Origin: a virus | Taxonomy: Duplodnaviria; Heunggongvirae; Uroviricota; Caudoviricetes | Reading direction: 5' to 3' (one strand) | DNA length: 20,139 nucleotides | Virus record (IMG/VR): IMGVR_UViG_2728369187_000007 | Location: 1-20,139 of that record | Shown here: piece by piece, positions 1,641-14,536 of the stretch | How positions within the stretch are numbered: position 1 is the stretch's first letter | How the letters are laid out: each line of letters begins with the position of its first letter | Translations under genes and position numbers: made by a program | Notes under the pieces: generated by a model | Database searches by the model: none | Seen by the model: the letters and a program-made list of their open reading frames with translations, nothing else | What the model was told of the DNA's origin: nothing

Positions 1641-4112
1641 TTAAGAATCAGCCTGACTCGGGATCAGTTTTTGCCAGATAACTGAAACGTATTTTGCTTG
1701 GTAACGGGCGTCATCAAGTGCATTATGGCGCTCACCTTCGAATGGAATAGCCGTTCTGGCATCGAAATCTATGGCTTTCCCCAGCTCAACGATTGTGCGT
1801 ACATCGCGATCGTTGTAGTAACGCCACGGGCAGGGGATCCCCTGCCGTTCGTATGAACGGCGCAAAATCGTGTTGTCGAAGTTGGCTCCATTTCCCCAAA
1901 CCTGAACAAAAAATTCACCGGAGTTTTCGTCGATAAATTCCCGCAATTGTAACAGTGCATCATCTAACGGGATTTCATCGGTCATAATGGCAGATTGTGC
2001 TTCGCGTGATTGCTTAAGCCACCATTTAATGGTGTCCCGATCAATGACTCCGCCAGCAGTTTCCAGATCGATAGTCTTACTAAATTCCGGTCCTATATCT
2101 CCGGTTTGCGGATCGAAAAATATTGCACCTATTGAGATGATCGGTGCATCAGGATTTTTTCCCATGGTTTCAAGGTCGATCATTAGATGGTCACACGTCC
2201 TGCTGGTGGATGTGATTTCGTGATGACCGTTCACCTTAATTGAGTGATCTGCCGTCTCGCCAGTTTCATTATCGCTATTGTGATGCTGATTGCCGCCAGT
2301 GTTCTCCTTGTGTGGATGTTCAGCGCCTTCCATTTCCTCCGGATCATCTTCCTGAACTTCAACCTGATACTCTTCATCGAATGTTTCTTGGTATGTTGCG
2401 TCGCCCATCACCGCGCCACAATCAGGGCAGTTGCCGCCGCCGGTCTGACCGCAGGCGGTGCAGACTTTTTCCACTTCCTGTTGCGCCACTGGTTCAGGCT
2501 GTTTCGTTTCTGGCTCGTTTTGTAACGCATTTGGGCTGTTTTGTTCCGCTTTTTGGTAGTTCCGTTCCGATTCATGCTGGTTCTGGTTCACAGAATCGCG
2601 GGTCTGGATCCCCTTAACCCATTTCGGATCATTCGGGTCACTAATCCCTTCAACAAATTCACCATGTGATGCAGCAAGCAACTTATCGGCGTCAGGCTGG
2701 CTGATATTGGCTGCCTGCATAATTTTGTTTACTTCGTCAGCGGTAACTTTTATCGGCTCTGGTTGTTCTGAATCTTCAGCGGTATCTACATTTTGCGGTA
2801 AGCCCGTGTATGTGCCATTTTTTCGGGCAAAATATTCTTCTTTTGTGATTTCAGTGGCGCCAGCAGCCAGTGCCTTATCCAGACCAGAAAGTTTGTTTGC
2901 GCGACCGTATTTTTCTCCGTCCTTATCTGCGAAGAGGAAATAGAACGGCCCCTCACGCTCTACAGATGGTTCAGCTTCCGGCGCGGTTTCATTTTTTGGG
3001 ATATCAGATACCTCAGTTTCCACTGCATCAGTTTGTGTTTCTGATGACTGGAGAACATCAACAGTGCCCAGGTCTGTTTCTTCATTCTCAAACACGCCCT
3101 TTGTCGTCAGGTATTCGCAGATATATTTGTTCAGTGCTACGGGATCTTTGTGAATGTCGATCGGACGCTCACGGACAAGGCCAAAAATAGTTTGGCGGTC
3201 GTAGCGAAGGGCATCAGGCTGTTTGCGCATTGATGCCGAGATACGCTTCCAGTCTTCGCGGTCGTTGTCGATAACTTCTTTTTTTGCCCAGCGATGGATG
3301 CTGCCGTCAATGTTTCCGGCATCCACATCACCAGGCCAGAGAGCGTAGGCCAGTTCGTCATCCAGTGTTTTCCATGTCTGCTTGTATTCGCGATGAATGG
3401 CAGCAATGACCGGGCTGATTTTTCCTGTTGAATTTTCAGTGTACTGTTGATTGGCTCTGGCGCGGGCGAGATCAACAACAGACGTGTATTTTCCGGTTTC
3501 CTTGCGTTCACCTTCGCGACGTTTTTTCCAGATGCGCATCTCTGCCTGAATTTCGGGCCATTTAGCACCAGGAATACATTTATGCTTAACCCACCCAATG
3601 GCGTGCAACTTAAGCTCCGGATACATGGCGTTAACTTCTGGCATTTTCATCAACGCTTCAACGATATGTCCGTCGAATGTTGCCATGTCTTCCTGCAACA
3701 ATTCCTGTGCGCTAATAACCATATCAACGGTGATGTTTTCACATGTGTCGAACTTAACCATGACAGCGTTCTGTACTTCAGGGGCCAGCTTGTCAAAAGT
3801 GACGTTCATCGGATCGGATTCAGTCTCAACCGGGACAAAAGAAGCAGACTCCTCATCCCAGCGGTTTTCCTGCATATATTCAGCATCCCATGAATCGAGG
3901 GCAGGGCGGGGTATGCCAGGTTTATCCTCGCAGACAATAAATTTATAAGCGCAGTCCTGAGCAGCCGGATAATGTTCCAGGAACTGCCAGTGAAATTTTG
4001 CTCGAGCACGGCGTTCGTCGCCAGCTTCAATGGCTGTGGCTACAGCCACAGCGCCTTCTTCCCTTGTTGCCAGTTCGTCAGGAATAGCGGCGCAAATAAA
4101 GACTTTACTCAT
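1641..4112 (-). CDS. RecE-like exonuclease (exodeoxyribonuclease VIII-like) with C-terminal DEDD-type 3'-5' exonuclease domain
   Basis: 823-aa ORF. C-terminal LMIDLETMG matches the Exo I motif (D-x-E-T-x-G) of DnaQ-like exonucleases. Acidic low-complexity linker in the middle. Sits where lambda has exo. Confidence 0.7.
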   Translation of the reverse strand: MSKVFICAAIPDELATREEGAVAVATAIEAGDERRARAKFHWQFLEHYPAAQDCAYKFIVCEDKPGIPRPALDSWDAEYMQENRWDEESASFVPVETESDPMNVTFDKLAPEVQNAVMVKFDTCENITVDMVISAQELLQEDMATFDGHIVEALMKMPEVNAMYPELKLHAIGWVKHKCIPGAKWPEIQAEMRIWKKRREGERKETGKYTSVVDLARARANQQYTENSTGKISPVIAAIHREYKQTWKTLDDELAYALWPGDVDAGNIDGSIHRWAKKEVIDNDREDWKRISASMRKQPDALRYDRQTIFGLVRERPIDIHKDPVALNKYICEYLTTKGVFENEETDLGTVDVLQSSETQTDAVETEVSDIPKNETAPEAEPSVEREGPFYFLFADKDGEKYGRANKLSGLDKALAAGATEITKEEYFARKNGTYTGLPQNVDTAEDSEQPEPIKVTADEVNKIMQAANISQPDADKLLAASHGEFVEGISDPNDPKWVKGIQTRDSVNQNQHESERNYQKAEQNSPNALQNEPETKQPEPVAQQEVEKVCTACGQTGGGNCPDCGAVMGDATYQETFDEEYQVEVQEDDPEEMEGAEHPHKENTGGNQHHNSDNETGETADHSIKVNGHHEITSTSRTCDHLMIDLETMGKNPDAPIISIGAIFFDPQTGDIGPEFSKTIDLETAGGVIDRDTIKWWLKQSREAQSAIMTDEIPLDDALLQLREFIDENSGEFFVQVWGNGANFDNTILRRSYERQGIPCPWRYYNDRDVRTIVELGKAIDFDARTAIPFEGERHNALDDARYQAKYVSVIWQKLIPSQADS

Positions 4113-4205
4113 TTTGTTTTAACCTCATGACAGATTTAAGGATGAACAAATCCCTGCCATTGCTGGCATATAAGAATGAAACCGGATATTTATTACGGAA
4201 CTGTT

Positions 4206-4397
4206 TTAAAGACCTGCCGGGATTTCGATATTATCCTGGTGAATAACTTTATCGACCGGGTAACAGTTACCGGGAATTTTCTGTTCGGTTGCTGCAGTCA
4301 TACACTCCTGCATTGTCCTGTTAACACTGTCTGCAATATCAACTGGCTCTCCGGAAACAAGAAAAACTGTCAGAACAAGCGCAAATGCTGAATTCAT
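4206..4397 (-). CDS. ydfD: YdfD-like small lysis protein
   Basis: 63-aa product from the internal Met (MNSAFALVLTVFLVSG...), hydrophobic N-terminus. Its ATG overlaps the dicB stop (ATGA). Matches the Qin dicB-ydfD order and length as I recall them. Confidence 0.6.
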   Translation of the reverse strand: MNSAFALVLTVFLVSGEPVDIADSVNRTMQECMTAATEQKIPGNCYPVDKVIHQDNIEIPAGL

Positions 4398-4582
4398 TGT
4401 GTACATCCTTTTGGCATCAGACGTAAACGAGCCAGCATTGAAACAATGCATATTTTATTTAATAGCTCCCGTTCTTGTTTTCTCTTGTTAATGGCATCTT
4501 CAGTAAATACAGGGTTACTGATAGTGACACCAATTTCAAAACAACCTTCAGACGTATTAACGTTTGGTAATAACGTTTTCAT
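4394..4582 (-). CDS. dicB: DicB cell-division inhibitor
   Basis: 62-aa product from the internal Met (MKTLLPNVNTSEGCFEIGV...LMPKGCTQ), matching DicB as recalled. Lies just downstream of DicF on the same strand, as in Qin. Confidence 0.75.
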   Translation of the reverse strand: MKTLLPNVNTSEGCFEIGVTISNPVFTEDAINKRKQERELLNKICIVSMLARLRLMPKGCTQ

Positions 4583-4751
4583 TATCGCGTCCTCAACAAT
4601 GAATTTTGTGATGCAGTGCCTGGTGCCTCCAGGTGACGTTAACCAGTTAACAATTAACGCCGGATACAGAGAATCCACCCATAACACTGTTTTTGGTTTT
4701 AACTGTTCCGCGTGCGCTTAGCCGCATTCACCGCATCACAAAATTCACTTT

Positions 4752-4809
4752 AAAAATGGCGGCAGAGCAGTCACGGAGTAAAACTGATACCGCCAAACGT
4801 CACCAGAAA
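4752..4809 (-). ncRNA. dicF: DicF small regulatory RNA (ftsZ-targeting sRNA of Qin-type prophages)
   Basis: Reverse complement reads UUUCUGGUGACGUUUGGCGGUAUCAGUUUUACUCCGUGACUGCUCUGCCGCCAUUUUU, near-identical to the DicF sequence as I recall it. Ends in a GC stem plus U-run; located between the leader and dicB. Confidence 0.75.
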
Positions 4810-5084
4810 ATTGATAACAGAGGGCGTTGCAGCGGGGTTGTCACTTAAGCGTATGGTCAACCTGACAACTCGGTGTCCTCAACGGGGAAGGAATAACCCC
4901 GCCATACTTACCGCCGCGCCATTTCGCGGGTTGCCACAACCGGAAGCGCACGGTCGAATTAAATTTAACGACACCGTACAGTGAGACGAACTTCGCCGTG
5001 CGCTTTCGTGTTGTGTGCCTGCTTTTAACCACGTCAGGCGAGGTGGTATCCTTCTTATCCCGAATAACCAAGAAGGAAATCTAT

Positions 5085-5285
5085 ATGACTAAAGAAGAAT
5101 TTGTCTCTTATATTTTTGATAAAACGGTTGAAATGTATGCCGCTACTTACGGGTCCTGTAATCCTCTGAATAAACCAGAGGGGAAAGATGATTTCGACAA
5201 AATTTACCGCTTCTTGGAGGACCGCTATATCAAAAGGTTAGAGGACGCAGGGATCAAATCCCCAGTGAAGTCACCATTGTCCTGA
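5085..5285 (+). CDS. Hypothetical 66-aa protein (moron-like, opposite strand to the early operon)
   Basis: ATG at 5085 preceded by GAAGGA; possible promoter TTTAAC-17-TATCCT upstream. AT-rich. Converges on and overlaps the 3' end of the 5254..5631 gene by 32 bp. Confidence 0.4.
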   Translation: MTKEEFVSYIFDKTVEMYAATYGSCNPLNKPEGKDDFDKIYRFLEDRYIKRLEDAGIKSPVKSPLS

Positions 5286-5631
5286 GAACTTGCAGGACGT
5301 CATGATCGTAACTTCCATCCAAACCGCGACGGCAAATTGCTTCTCGTATTACCGGAAGCAGTTCGCTGGAAATCTCGGTGCATATTTCACCTGATAATAC
5401 GCCTGGCTCAAGTGAGAATATTGGTGAACTTACGGTCTTGGTCTCGACAGTTTCAGAGTCAGTGCCAACATTATAAAGCTCAACGAAAGCGGTCTTGATT
5501 TTCCGGGCCAGATCTTTTGCTGGCTCGCTTGCAATATCTTTCCCGATTTCTCGCAGCACAGAATGCAATGTATGAGCTGCTGTTTTCTGTACATCAGACG
5601 GTAAATCTTTAAATTCCATCGTCAGCCTCAT
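5254..5631 (-). CDS. Hypothetical acidic protein (125 aa) of the early leftward operon
   Basis: ATG overlaps the stop of the upstream gene (ATGA coupling); an alternative start at 5619 has a GAGG RBS. No motif recognised. Confidence 0.5.
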   Translation of the reverse strand: MRLTMEFKDLPSDVQKTAAHTLHSVLREIGKDIASEPAKDLARKIKTAFVELYNVGTDSETVETKTVSSPIFSLEPGVLSGEICTEISSELLPVIREAICRRGLDGSYDHDVLQVLRTMVTSLGI

Positions 5632-5783
5632 CAGTCAGTGTTTCTGGCTAACCAGCAACGCGCGCCAGATTCGGTTTTAAACGTTTTGCTTTTGGTATAC
5701 GTCATCGCGGTGAACGTGCCGTCCTGGTTGGGGAACACGCCACATACCAGAGATTCGCTGTTGCCAAGATCGATAGTATCCAT
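5631..5783 (-). CDS. Small protein (50 aa), YdfA-like by position (first gene of the DicA-repressed operon)
   Basis: Start at the internal Met (MDTIDLGNSE...) with a GAGG RBS 5 nt upstream. Lies immediately downstream of the pL-like promoter and operators. Confidence 0.5.
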   Translation of the reverse strand: MDTIDLGNSESLVCGVFPNQDGTFTAMTYTKSKTFKTESGARCWLARNTD

Positions 5784-5860
5784 GCTGACCTCATTTCCCC
5801 TTAACGCCGGGGTAGCGGAACTGTTTGCTGAGAACACCGTGCGGTGTCTTGATGGAAAGT

Positions 5861-5915
5861 AATTTAGAATAACCTAACATAAGAGGCAAGTGTTTTTTGT
5901 TAGATTAGTCTAACA
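5861..5915 (-). promoter_or_regulatory. Left operator/promoter region (OL/pL-like): two operator palindromes flanking a leftward promoter
   Basis: Perfect 18-bp palindrome TGTTAGA-TTAG-TCTAACA at 5898-5915 and a weaker site TTTAGA-ATAA-CCTAACA at 5863-5879. Minus-strand promoter candidate: -35 TTGCCT (5884-5889), 17-bp spacer, -10 TAAATT (5861-5866). Confidence 0.55.
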
Positions 5916-5951
5916 AAAAGAGTGGGCGCAACTAATCACTTGAAAAGAATG

Positions 5952-6359
5952 TTATTTTATTGATTTATTTTTACGCGCTTTAAGCATTTCTTCGAAGAGT
6001 TTGTTGAAGTTTTCTACTCTTGCGCGCATTTCAGACAGCAAGGCTTCCTGCTCGGAAGATGGAAGAGCATCGAATAATTCGATCAATTCTTTGTGGTTGG
6101 GAGTTAGCTCTGTTTCCACATGAAGTTCTTGTGCCGGCACTGGTGCCTTGTCTTCGTCACCAAACATTAGCCATGTAGGTGAGCACTTCAGAGCATCCGC
6201 TAAAGCAAACAATCGTTTTCCGACTGGCTGGGTTTCGTCTCTTTCCCATTGTGAAATTGTGACGTGAGCAACCCCAGCGAGGCGCGCAGCTTCTCGTTGT
6301 GTTAAGCGTAATTCTTTTCGTCGCGCCAGAACTCGCTGGCCTAGGGTTCTTGTATCCAT
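5952..6359 (-). CDS. dicA: DicA-like HTH (XRE-family) prophage repressor
   Basis: N-terminal HTH (LTQREAARLAGVAHVTISQWE). C-terminal half (CSPTWLMFGDEDK...EMRARVENFNKLFEEMLKAR) closely matches DicA as recalled. Divergent from the cro-like gene. Confidence 0.8.
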   Translation of the reverse strand: MDTRTLGQRVLARRKELRLTQREAARLAGVAHVTISQWERDETQPVGKRLFALADALKCSPTWLMFGDEDKAPVPAQELHVETELTPNHKELIELFDALPSSEQEALLSEMRARVENFNKLFEEMLKARKNKSIK

Positions 6360-6360
6360 A

Positions 6361-6426
6361 GTTAGGTAATTCTAATTTTTCTTGACTTAGGTATCCCGCG
6401 CACAATAATGTTAGAAAAGTCTAACA
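6361..6426 (+). promoter_or_regulatory. Right operator/promoter region (OR/pR-like) between repressor and cro-like gene
   Basis: Perfect 18-bp palindrome TGTTAGA-AAAG-TCTAACA at 6409-6426 and a weaker site GTTAGG-TAAT-TCTAAT at 6361-6376. Rightward promoter: -35 TTGACT (6382-6387), 16-bp spacer, -10 AATAAT (6404-6409). Confidence 0.6.
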
Positions 6427-6439
6427 ATAGGAGGCTTTG

Positions 6440-6667
6440 ATGCTTAAAGCTGACGCAATTACTTTTTTTGGCAGCAAAACAAAGCTTGCCAATGCCGCAG
6501 GAGTGAGACTGGCAAGTGTTGCTGCTTGGGGGATACTGGTTCCTGAAGGTCGCGCGATGCGTCTACAGGAGGCATCTGGCGGGGAGCTTCAGTATGATCC
6601 CAAAGTTTATGACGAATATCGTAAGACGAAGCGGGCGGGGCGGTTGAACAATGAAAATCACTCCTGA
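6440..6667 (+). CDS. dicC: DicC-like Cro-type regulator
   Basis: 75-aa protein from the ATG at 6440, with AGGAGG 5 nt upstream (the ORF-track start at 6437 is TTG). Divergent from the repressor; sequence resembles DicC/YdaS-type Cro proteins. Confidence 0.7.
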   Translation: MLKADAITFFGSKTKLANAAGVRLASVAAWGILVPEGRAMRLQEASGGELQYDPKVYDEYRKTKRAGRLNNENHS

Positions 6668-7172
6668 ACAGGCTCGTGAGGCTCTGGATGCCTGGATATG
6701 TCGACCAGGAATGACACAGGAGCAGGCGACGATATTAATCACTGAAGCATTCTGGGCTTTGAAAGAGCGCCCGAACATCGATGTTCAGCGTGTCACAGAT
6801 GAAGGTGGCGCGGTTGATCAGCGAGCGCTTGGCGTTAATCGAGTGAAGATATTCGAACGCTGGAAGGCTATCGACACTAGGGATAAGCGTGAAAAGTTCA
6901 CGGCGCTAGTGCCTGCAATTATGGAGGCTATCCGGATTAATGATTTCAGGTTGTATCGTGAAATTAGTGACGGAAAAAGCATCACGTACATGATCGCCGG
7001 GTTAAACAAAGAATATGGCGATGTGGTGGAGTCCGGACTGCTTTTTGCTGATCCTGCCGTAGTGGATCGTGAAACTGACGAACTTATAGAAAAAGCAATT
7101 GCTTTCAAACTTGCGTATCGACTGCAATACCAACAAAAAGCTGGATGGAATTATGAGCCTTCTTTTTGCTGA
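6651..7172 (+). CDS. YdaT/CII-like regulatory protein (putative)
   Basis: 173-aa ORF directly after the cro-like gene, overlapping its end; the position corresponds to cII/YdaT in lambdoid prophages. Assignment is by synteny only. Confidence 0.4.
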   Translation: MKITPEQAREALDAWICRPGMTQEQATILITEAFWALKERPNIDVQRVTDEGGAVDQRALGVNRVKIFERWKAIDTRDKREKFTALVPAIMEAIRINDFRLYREISDGKSITYMIAGLNKEYGDVVESGLLFADPAVVDRETDELIEKAIAFKLAYRLQYQQKAGWNYEPSFC

Positions 7173-8896: not shown

Positions 8897-10384
8897 GTGG
8901 ACATTAGAGACTGGCTACCAGAATTTCAAGTTTCAGCAGAAACAGATCGGGACTTACAGACCTATTTTTTTAAGCTACCGGCGATAAAGGATATTATTGA
9001 AAGTAGGGCTTGGTTGGTTCTTGGAAGAAAAGGTACTGGTAAAACAGCCATTTATGAACACCTTAGAAGAGGAAAACCAGCCAATCTCAACGGGTTTTAC
9101 TCAGTATGTCTAAATTTTAGTGACTATCCATGGCCAGCCCATCAACTTTACAAGGATGCAATGGCTGGAGAACTTTCCGCTTATCAAAAAAGTTGGATGT
9201 ATCTTTTTTATATTAAGGCATTATCTAAACTTATTGAAATAAAAAATGATGCTGGAGAGACTTTAAACAAAGATCTAACGTGGGCACATAATTATATCAA
9301 AACTATCTTTGGTAGTCCCGACCCAACTCTTAGGGAGGTTTTGTTTTCAAAAATAACCAGATTAAAAACCATAAAAGGGCCCAGTGCTGGTCTTAATGAA
9401 GTATCATTGGACGCAGGTGAAATTTCGTTAGAGGAAGTTGCTGAGAATGCTCAGCTAAAGCAAAAGCTAAGAGCTAATGCTTTCACATTGCTTACGTATT
9501 TTGAAAAAATTTTTAAAGATAACATTGGTAATGAAAAAATAATTATCGCCCTTGACCAATTAGACGAAAACTGGCTAGAGGGGCAAATTGAAGAATATAG
9601 TAAGGTTTTAATAAATCTGCTAAATGTCTGTAGAAACATAGCATCTGATGAACGCCTCAATGATAAATTAAAAGTCATTCCCTTCCTACGAACGGATATT
9701 TATCATTCTTTGAAATTCAATGATAAAAACAAATTATTGCAAGATAGTGCTATCATAATCTCATGGAATGAAAATAATCTAAACGATATGTATTATGAGA
9801 GGATAAAGAAATACAAACCTAATGATCTCATATTAGATGACGAAAAGGACAGATCTGGGAAAGTATTTGAGGTTTCATTCGTTAGGCAGGGGACTCCTCC
9901 ATTTAAATATATATGTCGCCGTTCTTTCTTTAGGCCTAGGGATATTATTGTCTACTTCAACAAAATTAGGGCATGTCATAAAAATAATGTCTCAGGTCTT
10001 TACACTTCCAATGAGCTTTATGAAGCTGACCGTGAAGCATCTATAAGTGTGTACAATGAGGTGATTGATGAATGGTCCAACCAATTCCCTGAAATTGAGA
10101 ACTTACTAACTGTTCTTCAAACTATCCAAGTAGAAACATTCGATTTTAATGATTTCTCCGAGAAGTGCCGTAATGAATTTGCAGGTATTTCTGATGGGGT
10201 GATACGTCAATATATCAACTTCCTGTTTGATAACTCACTTATCGGACAAAAAAAACAAGGTAGATGGGAATACGTAAGTAGTTTGCCTAACTTAAAAATT
10301 AATCTACAAAATGAGTTTAGGACACATCATGCTTTAAAATACAGGTTGCATTTAATAGAAAGCAGACCGAGCCAAAATATTTAG
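8897..10384 (+). CDS. P-loop NTPase of unknown family (495 aa) on an AT-rich island; candidate accessory/defence gene
   Basis: GTG start with a GAGG RBS 5 nt upstream; in-frame stop 18 nt upstream. Walker A GRKGTGKT (aa 43-50); candidate Walker B IIIALDQLDE (about aa 215-224). Markedly AT-rich relative to flanks, preceded by about 315 bp of AT-rich non-coding DNA. Confidence 0.85.
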   Translation: MDIRDWLPEFQVSAETDRDLQTYFFKLPAIKDIIESRAWLVLGRKGTGKTAIYEHLRRGKPANLNGFYSVCLNFSDYPWPAHQLYKDAMAGELSAYQKSWMYLFYIKALSKLIEIKNDAGETLNKDLTWAHNYIKTIFGSPDPTLREVLFSKITRLKTIKGPSAGLNEVSLDAGEISLEEVAENAQLKQKLRANAFTLLTYFEKIFKDNIGNEKIIIALDQLDENWLEGQIEEYSKVLINLLNVCRNIASDERLNDKLKVIPFLRTDIYHSLKFNDKNKLLQDSAIIISWNENNLNDMYYERIKKYKPNDLILDDEKDRSGKVFEVSFVRQGTPPFKYICRRSFFRPRDIIVYFNKIRACHKNNVSGLYTSNELYEADREASISVYNEVIDEWSNQFPEIENLLTVLQTIQVETFDFNDFSEKCRNEFAGISDGVIRQYINFLFDNSLIGQKKQGRWEYVSSLPNLKINLQNEFRTHHALKYRLHLIESRPSQNI

Positions 10385-10656
10385 CTTACATCCATCTCCA
10401 TTAAGAAATCTTGCTATTGTTCTTATGGATCGTCTTTCTGACTGATTTCATATTGGCGAGGTAAAGGTAGTTAAGTAGAATGGCTGCGGGTGCTTGAGGC
10501 TATCTGCCTCGGGCATGAACACCAAAGGCAGATAGAGAAAAGCCCCAGTTAACATTACGCGTCCTGCAAGACGCTTAACATTAATCTGAGGCTCAATCTA
10601 TGAACGGCAAATCTAGGTTAGCCTCTTACGTGCCGAAAGGCAAGGAGAAGCAGGCT

Positions 10657-10812
10657 ATGAAGCAGCAAAAGGCGATGTTAATCGCCCTGATCGTCATCTG
10701 TTTAACCGTCATAGTGACGGCACTGGTAACGAGGAAAGACCTCTGCGAGGTACGAATCCGAACCGGCCAGACGGAGGTCGCTGTCTTCACAGCTTACGAA
10801 CCTGAGGAGTAA
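10657..10812 (+). CDS. hokD: Hok/Gef-family membrane toxin (HokD/RelF-like)
   Basis: 51-aa product MKQQKAMLIALIVICLTVIVTALVTRKDLCEVRIRTGQTEVAVFTAYEPEE with the single TM helix and conserved Cys of Hok toxins. RBS AAGGAGAAG upstream of the ATG at 10657. Confidence 0.85.
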   Translation: MKQQKAMLIALIVICLTVIVTALVTRKDLCEVRIRTGQTEVAVFTAYEPEE

Positions 10813-12986: not shown

Positions 12987-13346
12987 ATGCGTATAGAGTT
13001 TGTTTTGCCTTATCCGCCGACGGTGAATACTTACTGGCGACGTCGTGGCAACACATATTTTGTATCAAAAGTCGGTGAGCGTTATCGCCGTGATGTGGCA
13101 CTAATTGTTCGCCAGCAGCGGTTGAAATTAAACCTGTCCGGAAGGCTGGCAATAAAAATTATTGCAGAGCCACCGGATAAGCGCCGCCGCGACCTGGACA
13201 ATATCCTGAAGGCACCACTGGATGCGCTGACGCATGCCGGACTTCTTATAGACGACGAGCAGTTTGATGAAATCAATATTGTGCGCGGACTGCCTGTTCC
13301 TGGTGGTCGGCTGGGGATAAAAATCACAGAACTGGAGTGCGCATGA
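12987..13346 (+). CDS. rusA: RusA-family Holliday junction resolvase
   Basis: 119 aa with the conserved PDKRRRDLDN catalytic region and a GGRL...I motif near the C-terminus. RBS AAAGAGG. Confidence 0.85.
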   Translation: MRIEFVLPYPPTVNTYWRRRGNTYFVSKVGERYRRDVALIVRQQRLKLNLSGRLAIKIIAEPPDKRRRDLDNILKAPLDALTHAGLLIDDEQFDEINIVRGLPVPGGRLGIKITELECA

Positions 13347-14032
13347 ATAACCAGTATTTACAGTTTGTGCGTGAGCAGCTCATTATCGCTACCGCTGATT
13401 TGAGTGGGGCAACAAAAGGTCAGCTTGAAGCCTGGCAGGAGAATGCCATGTTTGATACAGGGCGTTACAGGCGTAAAAAAATCCGGTACCGCGATGAAGT
13501 GACTGGAAGAATGATAACGCGGGATAGTCCACCGATACCGGGAAAACAATCACTGGCGAAAGGCTCATCAATTGCTCTGGTAAGTCAGGTTGAGTTTTCG
13601 ACATCATCATGGCGACGGGCAGTTCTGTCTCTTGAAGAACATCATAAAGCCTGGTTGTTGTGGTGTTACAGCGGGATTATTTGTTGGGAATATCAGATCG
13701 CGATAACACAGTGGGCGTGGAATGAATTTAATACTCAATCCGGTACCAGAAAAATTGCAGGGAAAACGCAGGAACGCCTGAAAAAATTAATCTGGCTGGC
13801 GGCGCAGGCAGTAAAAGCAGAACTTTTTGGTGGGGAAGGTTATGAATACCAGGAGCTGGCATTACTGGCGGGAGTGACAACTAAAAACTGGTCCAAAACA
13901 TTTACTCGTCACTGGGTTGCAATGAAACACATTTTTCACCGACTTGATAGTGAGGCTTTATTGTTTGTAATGAGAACACGTTCAAAACAAAAGGCGGCAT
14001 TTTCAAAGCAAAGTGTTGCAAAAGTAGATTGA
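13343..14032 (+). CDS. Late-gene antiterminator Q-like protein (putative)
   Basis: 229 aa; ATG overlaps the rusA stop (ATGA). Last gene before the promoter/terminator/lysis region. Assignment is by position, not by a recognised motif. Confidence 0.5.
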   Translation: MNNQYLQFVREQLIIATADLSGATKGQLEAWQENAMFDTGRYRRKKIRYRDEVTGRMITRDSPPIPGKQSLAKGSSIALVSQVEFSTSSWRRAVLSLEEHHKAWLLWCYSGIICWEYQIAITQWAWNEFNTQSGTRKIAGKTQERLKKLIWLAAQAVKAELFGGEGYEYQELALLAGVTTKNWSKTFTRHWVAMKHIFHRLDSEALLFVMRTRSKQKAAFSKQSVAKVD

Positions 14033-14226: not shown

Positions 14227-14302
14227 GGCCCTTTAGCTCAGTGGTGAGAGCGAGCGACTCATAATCGCCAGGTCGCTGGTTCAAATCCAGCAAGGGCCAC
14301 CA
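14227..14302 (+). tRNA. tRNA with anticodon CAT (elongator Met or Ile2-type)
   Basis: 76 nt. 7-bp acceptor stem GGCCCTT/AAGGGCC, D-arm GCTC...GAGC, anticodon loop CTCATAA, T-arm GCTGG-TTCAAAT-CCAGC, encoded CCA. G1-C72 pair argues against an initiator. Confidence 0.85.
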
Positions 14303-14303
14303 G

Positions 14304-14380
14304 CCGCCACTAGCTCATCAGGAAAGAGCGTCAACCCTTTAAGTTGAGTGTGCGAGGTTCGAGTCCCCGGTGGCGGTCCA
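14304..14380 (+). tRNA. tRNA-like gene, anticodon TTT (Lys) as read, atypical anticodon loop
   Basis: 77 nt. Perfect 7-bp acceptor stem, D-arm GCTC...GAGC, anticodon stem TCAAC/GTTGA with loop CCTTTAA (C at position 33), T-loop TTCGAGT with one A-C mismatch in the T-stem, encoded CCA. Confidence 0.6.
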
Positions 14381-14382
14381 GT

Positions 14383-14458
<76 letters not shown>

Positions 14459-14461
14459 TAT

Positions 14462-14536
<75 letters not shown>

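Follow-up and report, generated by a model that had tools for sequence, protein, structure and literature searches.

What is a short open reading frame (ORF) doing on the strand opposite the early leftward operon of a lambdoid prophage, and is its product a protein, an antisense transcript or neither? The stretch of DNA analysed here, referred to as the window, spans 20,139 nucleotides (positions 1 to 20,139 of the Caudoviricetes record IMGVR_UViG_2728369187_000007) and represents an E. coli prophage of the Qin-like lambdoid type; many E. coli chromosomes, BL21(DE3) and REL606 among them, match its positions 4700-5900 at 99.7-99.8% identity. Comparison of the locus with its homologues indicates that the ORF is probably a genuine protein gene that this prophage carries as cargo, on the strand opposite its early-left (dicBF-type) operon. 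The locus contains the following elements:

4757..4808, minus strand: DicF sRNA, which comes next in the leftward operon going downstream (Rfam RF00039, 73.4 bits)
5025..5052, plus strand: putative promoter of the small gene, read by eye, with a conserved −10 block
5027..5639, unstranded: mosaic cassette of 613 bp holding the small gene with its promoter block and the partner gene, delimited by blastn break points against K-12
5073..5077, plus strand: Shine-Dalgarno sequence AAGGA, 7 nt before the ATG
5085..5285, plus strand: 66-aa small protein gene (WP_000159335.1, PHROG 34441), from the ORF list, RefSeq and homologues
5254..5285, unstranded: convergent coding overlap of 32 bp, read from the sequence
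5254..5400, minus strand: C-terminal domain of the partner (about 48 aa, residues 74-121), inherited with the small gene
5254..5619, minus strand: convergent partner gene, 121 aa (WP_001320327.1, PHROG 33007), from the ORF list, RefSeq and an AF2 model
5631..5783, minus strand: ydfA-like DUF1391 gene, first of the leftward operon, from annotation and family search
5952..6359, minus strand: DicA-like HTH repressor gene, from annotation and family search
6440-6667, plus strand: DicC/Cro-like gene

Beyond DicF, the leftward operon continues with dicB, a ydfD-like gene and the gene of an 823-aa exonuclease. Homology to the Qin prophage of K-12 ends at 5026 and resumes at 5640 (blastn), the interval being occupied there by ydfB-ydfC instead, and neither K-12 YdfB nor YdfC is similar to the small protein or its partner. 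A search of 5426 complete E. coli genomes found the cassette that replaces them in 392, with at least 98.7% identity in almost all cases, and one deposited phage, the viable mEp460_ev081 (LR597641), has it too; the literature on DicF and dicBF covers only the ydfABC version of the locus found in K-12.

Other parts of the window also carry accessory elements. A 495-aa ORF at 8897-10384 (plus strand), located between a DUF977 gene and hokD/sok, matches only PHROG 13260, to which no function is assigned, and gave no Pfam match; in the Qin prophage of BL21(DE3), DUF977 leads directly to hokD, so that this ORF looks like extra cargo here. It is followed at 10488-10662 (plus strand) by the sok antitoxin RNA (Rfam, 110 bits), part of a hokD-type hok/sok locus, a type I toxin-antitoxin system, and four tRNA genes (Met-CAT, Lys-TTT, Thr-TGT and Gly-TCC) lie at 14227-14536 (plus strand), directly downstream of the Q antiterminator gene at 13337-14032.

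The original prediction described an AT-rich frame of 66 codons running against the leftward operon. Its extent and direction are borne out, with the ATG at 5085-5087 and the TGA at 5283-5285 according to both the sequence and the ORF list, and with the frame on the plus strand opposite its minus-strand neighbours; its composition is only mildly AT-rich, the GC content being 40.8% in the ORF, 51.8% in the flank at 4809-5084 and 47.5% in the window, which is a modest difference. Since the region 3500-7000 contains 30 ORFs that reach 40 aa or more, the length of the frame alone is not beyond chance, and its status as a gene therefore rests on conservation. The frame is already annotated as a hypothetical protein, with a RefSeq entry (WP_000159335.1) whose CDS is identical in BL21(DE3) and REL606 and a full-length match to the profile phrog_34441 (E=1.5e-50, residues 1-66 on positions 1-66 of 66), and it is in this respect fairly ordinary prophage cargo. 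In record NC_012971.2 it occupies 1594718-1594918, minus strand. Neither WP_000159335.1 nor PHROG 34441 has a function assigned in its resource, and a literature search for the accessions found no paper naming them.

The family of the small protein is tiny and confined to prophages of Enterobacterales. Nineteen matches were found among 5.8 billion clustered proteins, and a profile search with HMMER returned 13 matches among 1.84 billion representatives; the latter scan gained one distant member, P0044, and also matched three repeat-protein false positives, and scans of GTDB genomes and JGI metagenomes added no further diversity of the family. Intact homologues keep the length of the protein (65-73 aa) at 42-91% identity, distributed as follows:

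Enterobacter-type prophages L015, L010 and L134: 88-91% identity to the small protein
Cedecea prophages L003 and L004: 73% identity
L002 and L005: 54-57% identity
P0044, in L017 and L018: 42% identity

A check proposed with the original prediction, namely whether homologous prophages conserve the ORF or only its promoter, came out in favour of coding: in addition to the preserved length, pairwise Nei-Gojobori estimates of dN/dS for the small gene range from 0.06 to 0.29 with synonymous sites near saturation, and those for the 56 codons outside the overlap from 0.06 to 0.21. Differences at third codon positions are about twice as frequent as those at first or second positions. Within the first 16 codons they are almost all synonymous, leaving an N-terminal helix that is nearly invariant (MT[KN]E[EQ]FVxY[IV]FDKTV); because the changes in this helix are nearly all silent, the constraint acts on the protein and not on the RNA or DNA, and because selection extends across the 56 codons outside the overlap, an RNA cannot be the sole product. 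By these sequence comparisons, the ORF is a genuine protein-coding gene under purifying selection. An alternative GTG start at 4998, which would give a protein of 95 aa, was rejected: the in-frame upstream sequence is not conserved, and the Shine-Dalgarno sequence and the ATG at 5085 are.

Disrupted alleles also occur. Two contigs (L039 and L042) carry a clean 362-bp deletion, equivalent to 4874-5235, which removes the promoter and 5′ half of the small gene and leaves the 121-aa gene intact, and three independent contigs (L135-L137) have IS1 inserted at an identical point, equivalent to 5130/5131, after codon 15 of the small gene. Since some prophages have thus lost the small gene and kept an intact partner, the small gene is dispensable in repressed cryptic prophages.

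The encoded protein is small (7.7 kDa), acidic (pI 5.3) and hydrophilic (GRAVY −0.68), with a single cysteine and no membrane segment. An AF2 model built from the shallow family alignment is a hairpin of two helices, residues 3-22 and 31-54 (mean pLDDT 81.5), followed by a low-confidence or disordered tail that corresponds to the part encoded in the overlap. Homology and fold searches with the small protein provided no functional lead: NCBIfam, PADLOC and PDB sequence profile searches returned nothing, and the Pfam scan, which would cover any SieB model contained in Pfam, had Zn_ribbon_16 as its only hit; this was set aside as sub-threshold (14 bits where 27 are required, E=0.04) in a protein with only one cysteine.

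Signals for independent expression lie immediately upstream. The proposal of a good ribosome-binding site is upheld by AAGGA at 5073-5077, 7 nt upstream of the ATG and conserved, with AAGGAAAT or GGAGG at equal distance from the ATG in homologous loci. The plausible sigma-70 promoter fares less uniformly. Its extended −10 element (TGgTATCCT, 5044-5052) is conserved in eight loci, but the −35 element (TTAACC, 5025-5030), separated from it by a 16-nt spacer that includes the TG, is weak, and a consensus scan with a threshold of at least 9/12 matches misses the site and found no other upstream of the gene, the site recognized by eye scoring 8/12 plus the TG; transcription from it would be predicted to start at about 5059-5061. 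When the 90 nt preceding the ATG were aligned across the eight loci, the block GGTG(G/A)TA(T/C)CCTT was kept 32-38 nt before the ATG in all eight of these diverged loci, and the leader between it and the conserved Shine-Dalgarno sequence was found to have diverged, the pattern that would be expected of a promoter plus a ribosome-binding site. L017 has a perfect TATAAT in place of the −10 block. A short inverted repeat, CCAC-N10-GTGG at 5029-5046 (plus strand), overlaps the spacer of the putative promoter, and its 5-bp stem is conserved in L002, L005 and L015; possible roles are those of an operator or an RNA hairpin, though the repeat may simply belong to the conserved promoter block.

Downstream, the plus strand contains no intrinsic terminator (hairpin plus T-run) between 5200 and 6000, so that a transcript of the small gene would run antisense into the 121-aa gene unless stopped by Rho or by collision. 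On the minus strand, the first good terminator is that of DicF itself (hairpin 4793-4759). Overlapping convergent transcripts are therefore likely, as judged from these signals.

The overlap of the two coding regions had been put at 32 bp with the 3′ end of a 125-aa gene. The interval 5254-5285 is exact, but the partner is likely to be 121 aa long: an ATG at 5631 would give 125 aa, and RefSeq as well as the alignments of all homologues place the start at 5619, with GAGG 6 nt upstream. Within the overlap, the small-protein tail ...SPVKSPLS is encoded opposite the partner's ...RTMVTSLGI. The small gene is convergent and overlapping with an early gene in all six lineages, the overlap measuring 56 bp in L002/L005 and 35 bp in L017.

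For the partner, AF2 gave a model with an overall pLDDT of 58.5, too poor for a fold search. Its N-terminal domain is helical (pLDDT about 75) and is joined by a disordered linker to a C-terminal helical hairpin (pLDDT 50-55) that was also of low confidence when folded alone. The N-domain is common to several PHROGs and to proteins from Serratia, Enterobacter kobei and L016. The C-domain, with the motif …E.LP.I.EAI…G..G.Y…V…M.TSLG, is constrained at the protein level (pN/pS 0.22-0.6, pS saturated) and accompanies the small gene in five of the six lineages, in three architectures:

Architecture 1, window and L015: 121 aa, same N-domain plus C-domain
Architecture 2, L002/L005: 129 aa, different N-domain, 8-aa extension
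Architecture 3, Cedecea: stand-alone 54-aa frame with its own AGGAGA-ATG

In Cedecea the pair has moved to the rightward operon, where it is flanked by cro and a cII-like CP76 gene. There, in L003 (3568-3897, minus strand) and L004, the stop codon of the partner is lost, and the resulting frame of 109 aa spans all of the small gene in antisense orientation, which suggests decay. Of 61 viral contigs that encode the C-domain, the two deletion contigs are the only ones without the small gene, which is likewise absent beside partner homologues with other C-termini. The exception among the lineages is L017, whose 63-aa convergent partner showed no similarity to the C-domain profile (hhalign, probability 0.2). 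Although suggestive of a functional pair, this co-inheritance is confounded, because the overlap forces the 3′ end of the partner to travel with the small gene; the linkage could be hitch-hiking, with viable junctions falling at domain borders.

How might the gene work? In K-12, DicA represses dicBp and the antirepressor Rem induces it (PMC10448788). If the small gene is a protein gene carried as cargo in such an operon, it would be transcribed from its own putative promoter while DicA silences the leftward promoter, and would thus be made in the lysogen. Because it faces the leftward promoter and has no terminator, firing of that promoter would shut it off by promoter occlusion or collision, giving reciprocal expression and, incidentally, a degree of RNA duplex formation at the 3′ ends. 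Its product, modelled as a soluble 7.7-kDa two-helix hairpin and too small for catalysis, would most likely act by binding another protein. The most specific guess at the target, and a tentative one, is the helical hairpin at the C-terminus of the convergent product, since this is co-inherited with the small gene; binding it would buffer basal early protein until induction. A protein of the host or of an incoming phage is about as likely a target, in line with other cargo that lysogens express from this site.

A possible but doubtful alternative to this scheme is that the small gene and the C-domain form a two-gene module, with the small protein as an antidote or lock that is on in the lysogen and the C-domain of the partner as an effector that is on after induction, the two being made mutually exclusive by convergent transcription. 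The co-inheritance through three partner architectures and two operon contexts speaks for it, as does the placing of recombination joints, which coincide with the start of the C-domain and not with the end of the small gene; protein-level constraint bears on both, and the two predicted hairpins could pack as a four-helix bundle. On the other hand, linkage is predicted by physical overlap alone, the partner stays intact where the small gene is deleted or disrupted by IS1, that of L017 is not detectably related to the C-domain, the lost stop in Cedecea suggests decay, and neither the small protein nor the partner matches a toxin or antitoxin domain or a defence model in Pfam, NCBIfam or PADLOC. 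It is less likely still that the pair constitutes a portable prophage switch, in which the lysogen-expressed hairpin would pack with an early lytic effector into a four-helix bundle and so neutralize it, and the overlapping 3′ ends would make the two states exclusive; the same low probability attaches to reading it as a unit that can be fused to different N-terminal domains and fits either early operon.

It is improbable that the plus-strand transcript is itself the main product, the frame being secondary, and that it acts as a brake that damps leftward read-through to DicF and dicB by convergent transcription or RNA duplex formation. Such a role would suit a gene that is convergent and overlapping in every lineage and whose transcript should, for want of a terminator, extend antisense through the 121-aa gene into ydfA, and lambda OOP/cII offers a precedent; yet purifying selection acts on the protein outside the overlap, synonymous changes are free, so that conservation does not lie in the nucleotide sequence, the Shine-Dalgarno sequence and ATG are retained, and unrelated protein genes occupy the slot in other prophages. 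An antisense effect is possible as a by-product of the transcript. Finally, that the frame is a chance ORF or a decaying remnant without present function, as the many ORFs of similar size in the region, the very narrow family, the near-clonality of the cassette within E. coli and the disrupted alleles might suggest, is made very improbable by intact homologues of the same length in Enterobacter, Cedecea and other contigs, by saturated synonymous and low non-synonymous divergence, and by a conserved ribosome-binding site and promoter motif.

Expression of the gene in the lysogen would mean that the Qin-like prophage of the widely used E. coli B strains (REL606, BL21) encodes a further uncharacterized small protein, from a site adjoining the toxic dicF/dicB locus, the regulation of which is still under study, and that the sieB slot of Rac/Qin-type prophages is a general landing site for opposite-strand cargo; otherwise the product is one more hypothetical prophage protein. 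The co-inherited pair also provides a tractable case for asking whether convergent early phage genes that overlap at their 3′ ends form regulatory units, and its portability is the sole feature that could raise the importance of the locus.

Among known systems, the closest in layout is the Rac prophage of K-12 (L157, NC_000913.3 1418405-1419311), where racR, ydaG and ydaF (DUF1391) are followed by sieB on the opposite strand, KilS, kilR and recE. Like the small gene, Rac sieB is convergent with its neighbour and overlaps its 3′ end in the same slot, and the succession KilS/kilR/exonuclease parallels DicF/dicB/exonuclease here, kilR and dicB both encoding FtsZ inhibitors. The likeness is one of genomic slot only: the annotation of Rac sieB is that of a superinfection exclusion protein of 162 aa, as opposed to a 66-aa hydrophilic helical hairpin, its overlap with ydaF is 4 bp rather than 32 bp, and there is no sequence or structural relation between the two. 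Other prophages fill the position differently. In Serratia prophages (L011-L013), a homologue of the partner N-domain is followed by an unrelated convergent, overlapping small ORF (81 aa at 4269-4514, minus strand, in L011), and in L016 an unrelated 72-aa ORF (phrog_21180; 4416-4634, minus strand) is likewise convergent with and overlaps the gene of an N-domain homologue. Because Rac, Serratia and L016 place other opposite-strand genes there, comparison of these loci suggests that the slot is a recurrent site for such cargo, with the small ORF as one occupant.

The morons of lambdoid phages are autonomous cargo transcription units, and the suggestion that the ORF encodes a small moron protein is sustained in part. 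The small gene resembles them in its presence or absence between homologous prophages, lower GC content and promoter-like motif of its own, and appears oriented for possible expression while the flanking operon is repressed; unlike a moron, it has no terminator, overlaps the coding region of its neighbour and came in a two-gene replacement cassette rather than by clean insertion. The OOP RNA of lambda, by comparison, is a short non-coding antisense RNA opposite cII that ends at an intrinsic terminator. Both are short convergent units within an early operon near the immunity region and overlap the 3′ end of a neighbouring gene; the small gene differs from OOP in having no terminator and in encoding a protein under purifying selection, and this coding conservation favours a small moron protein over a purely RNA-level element.
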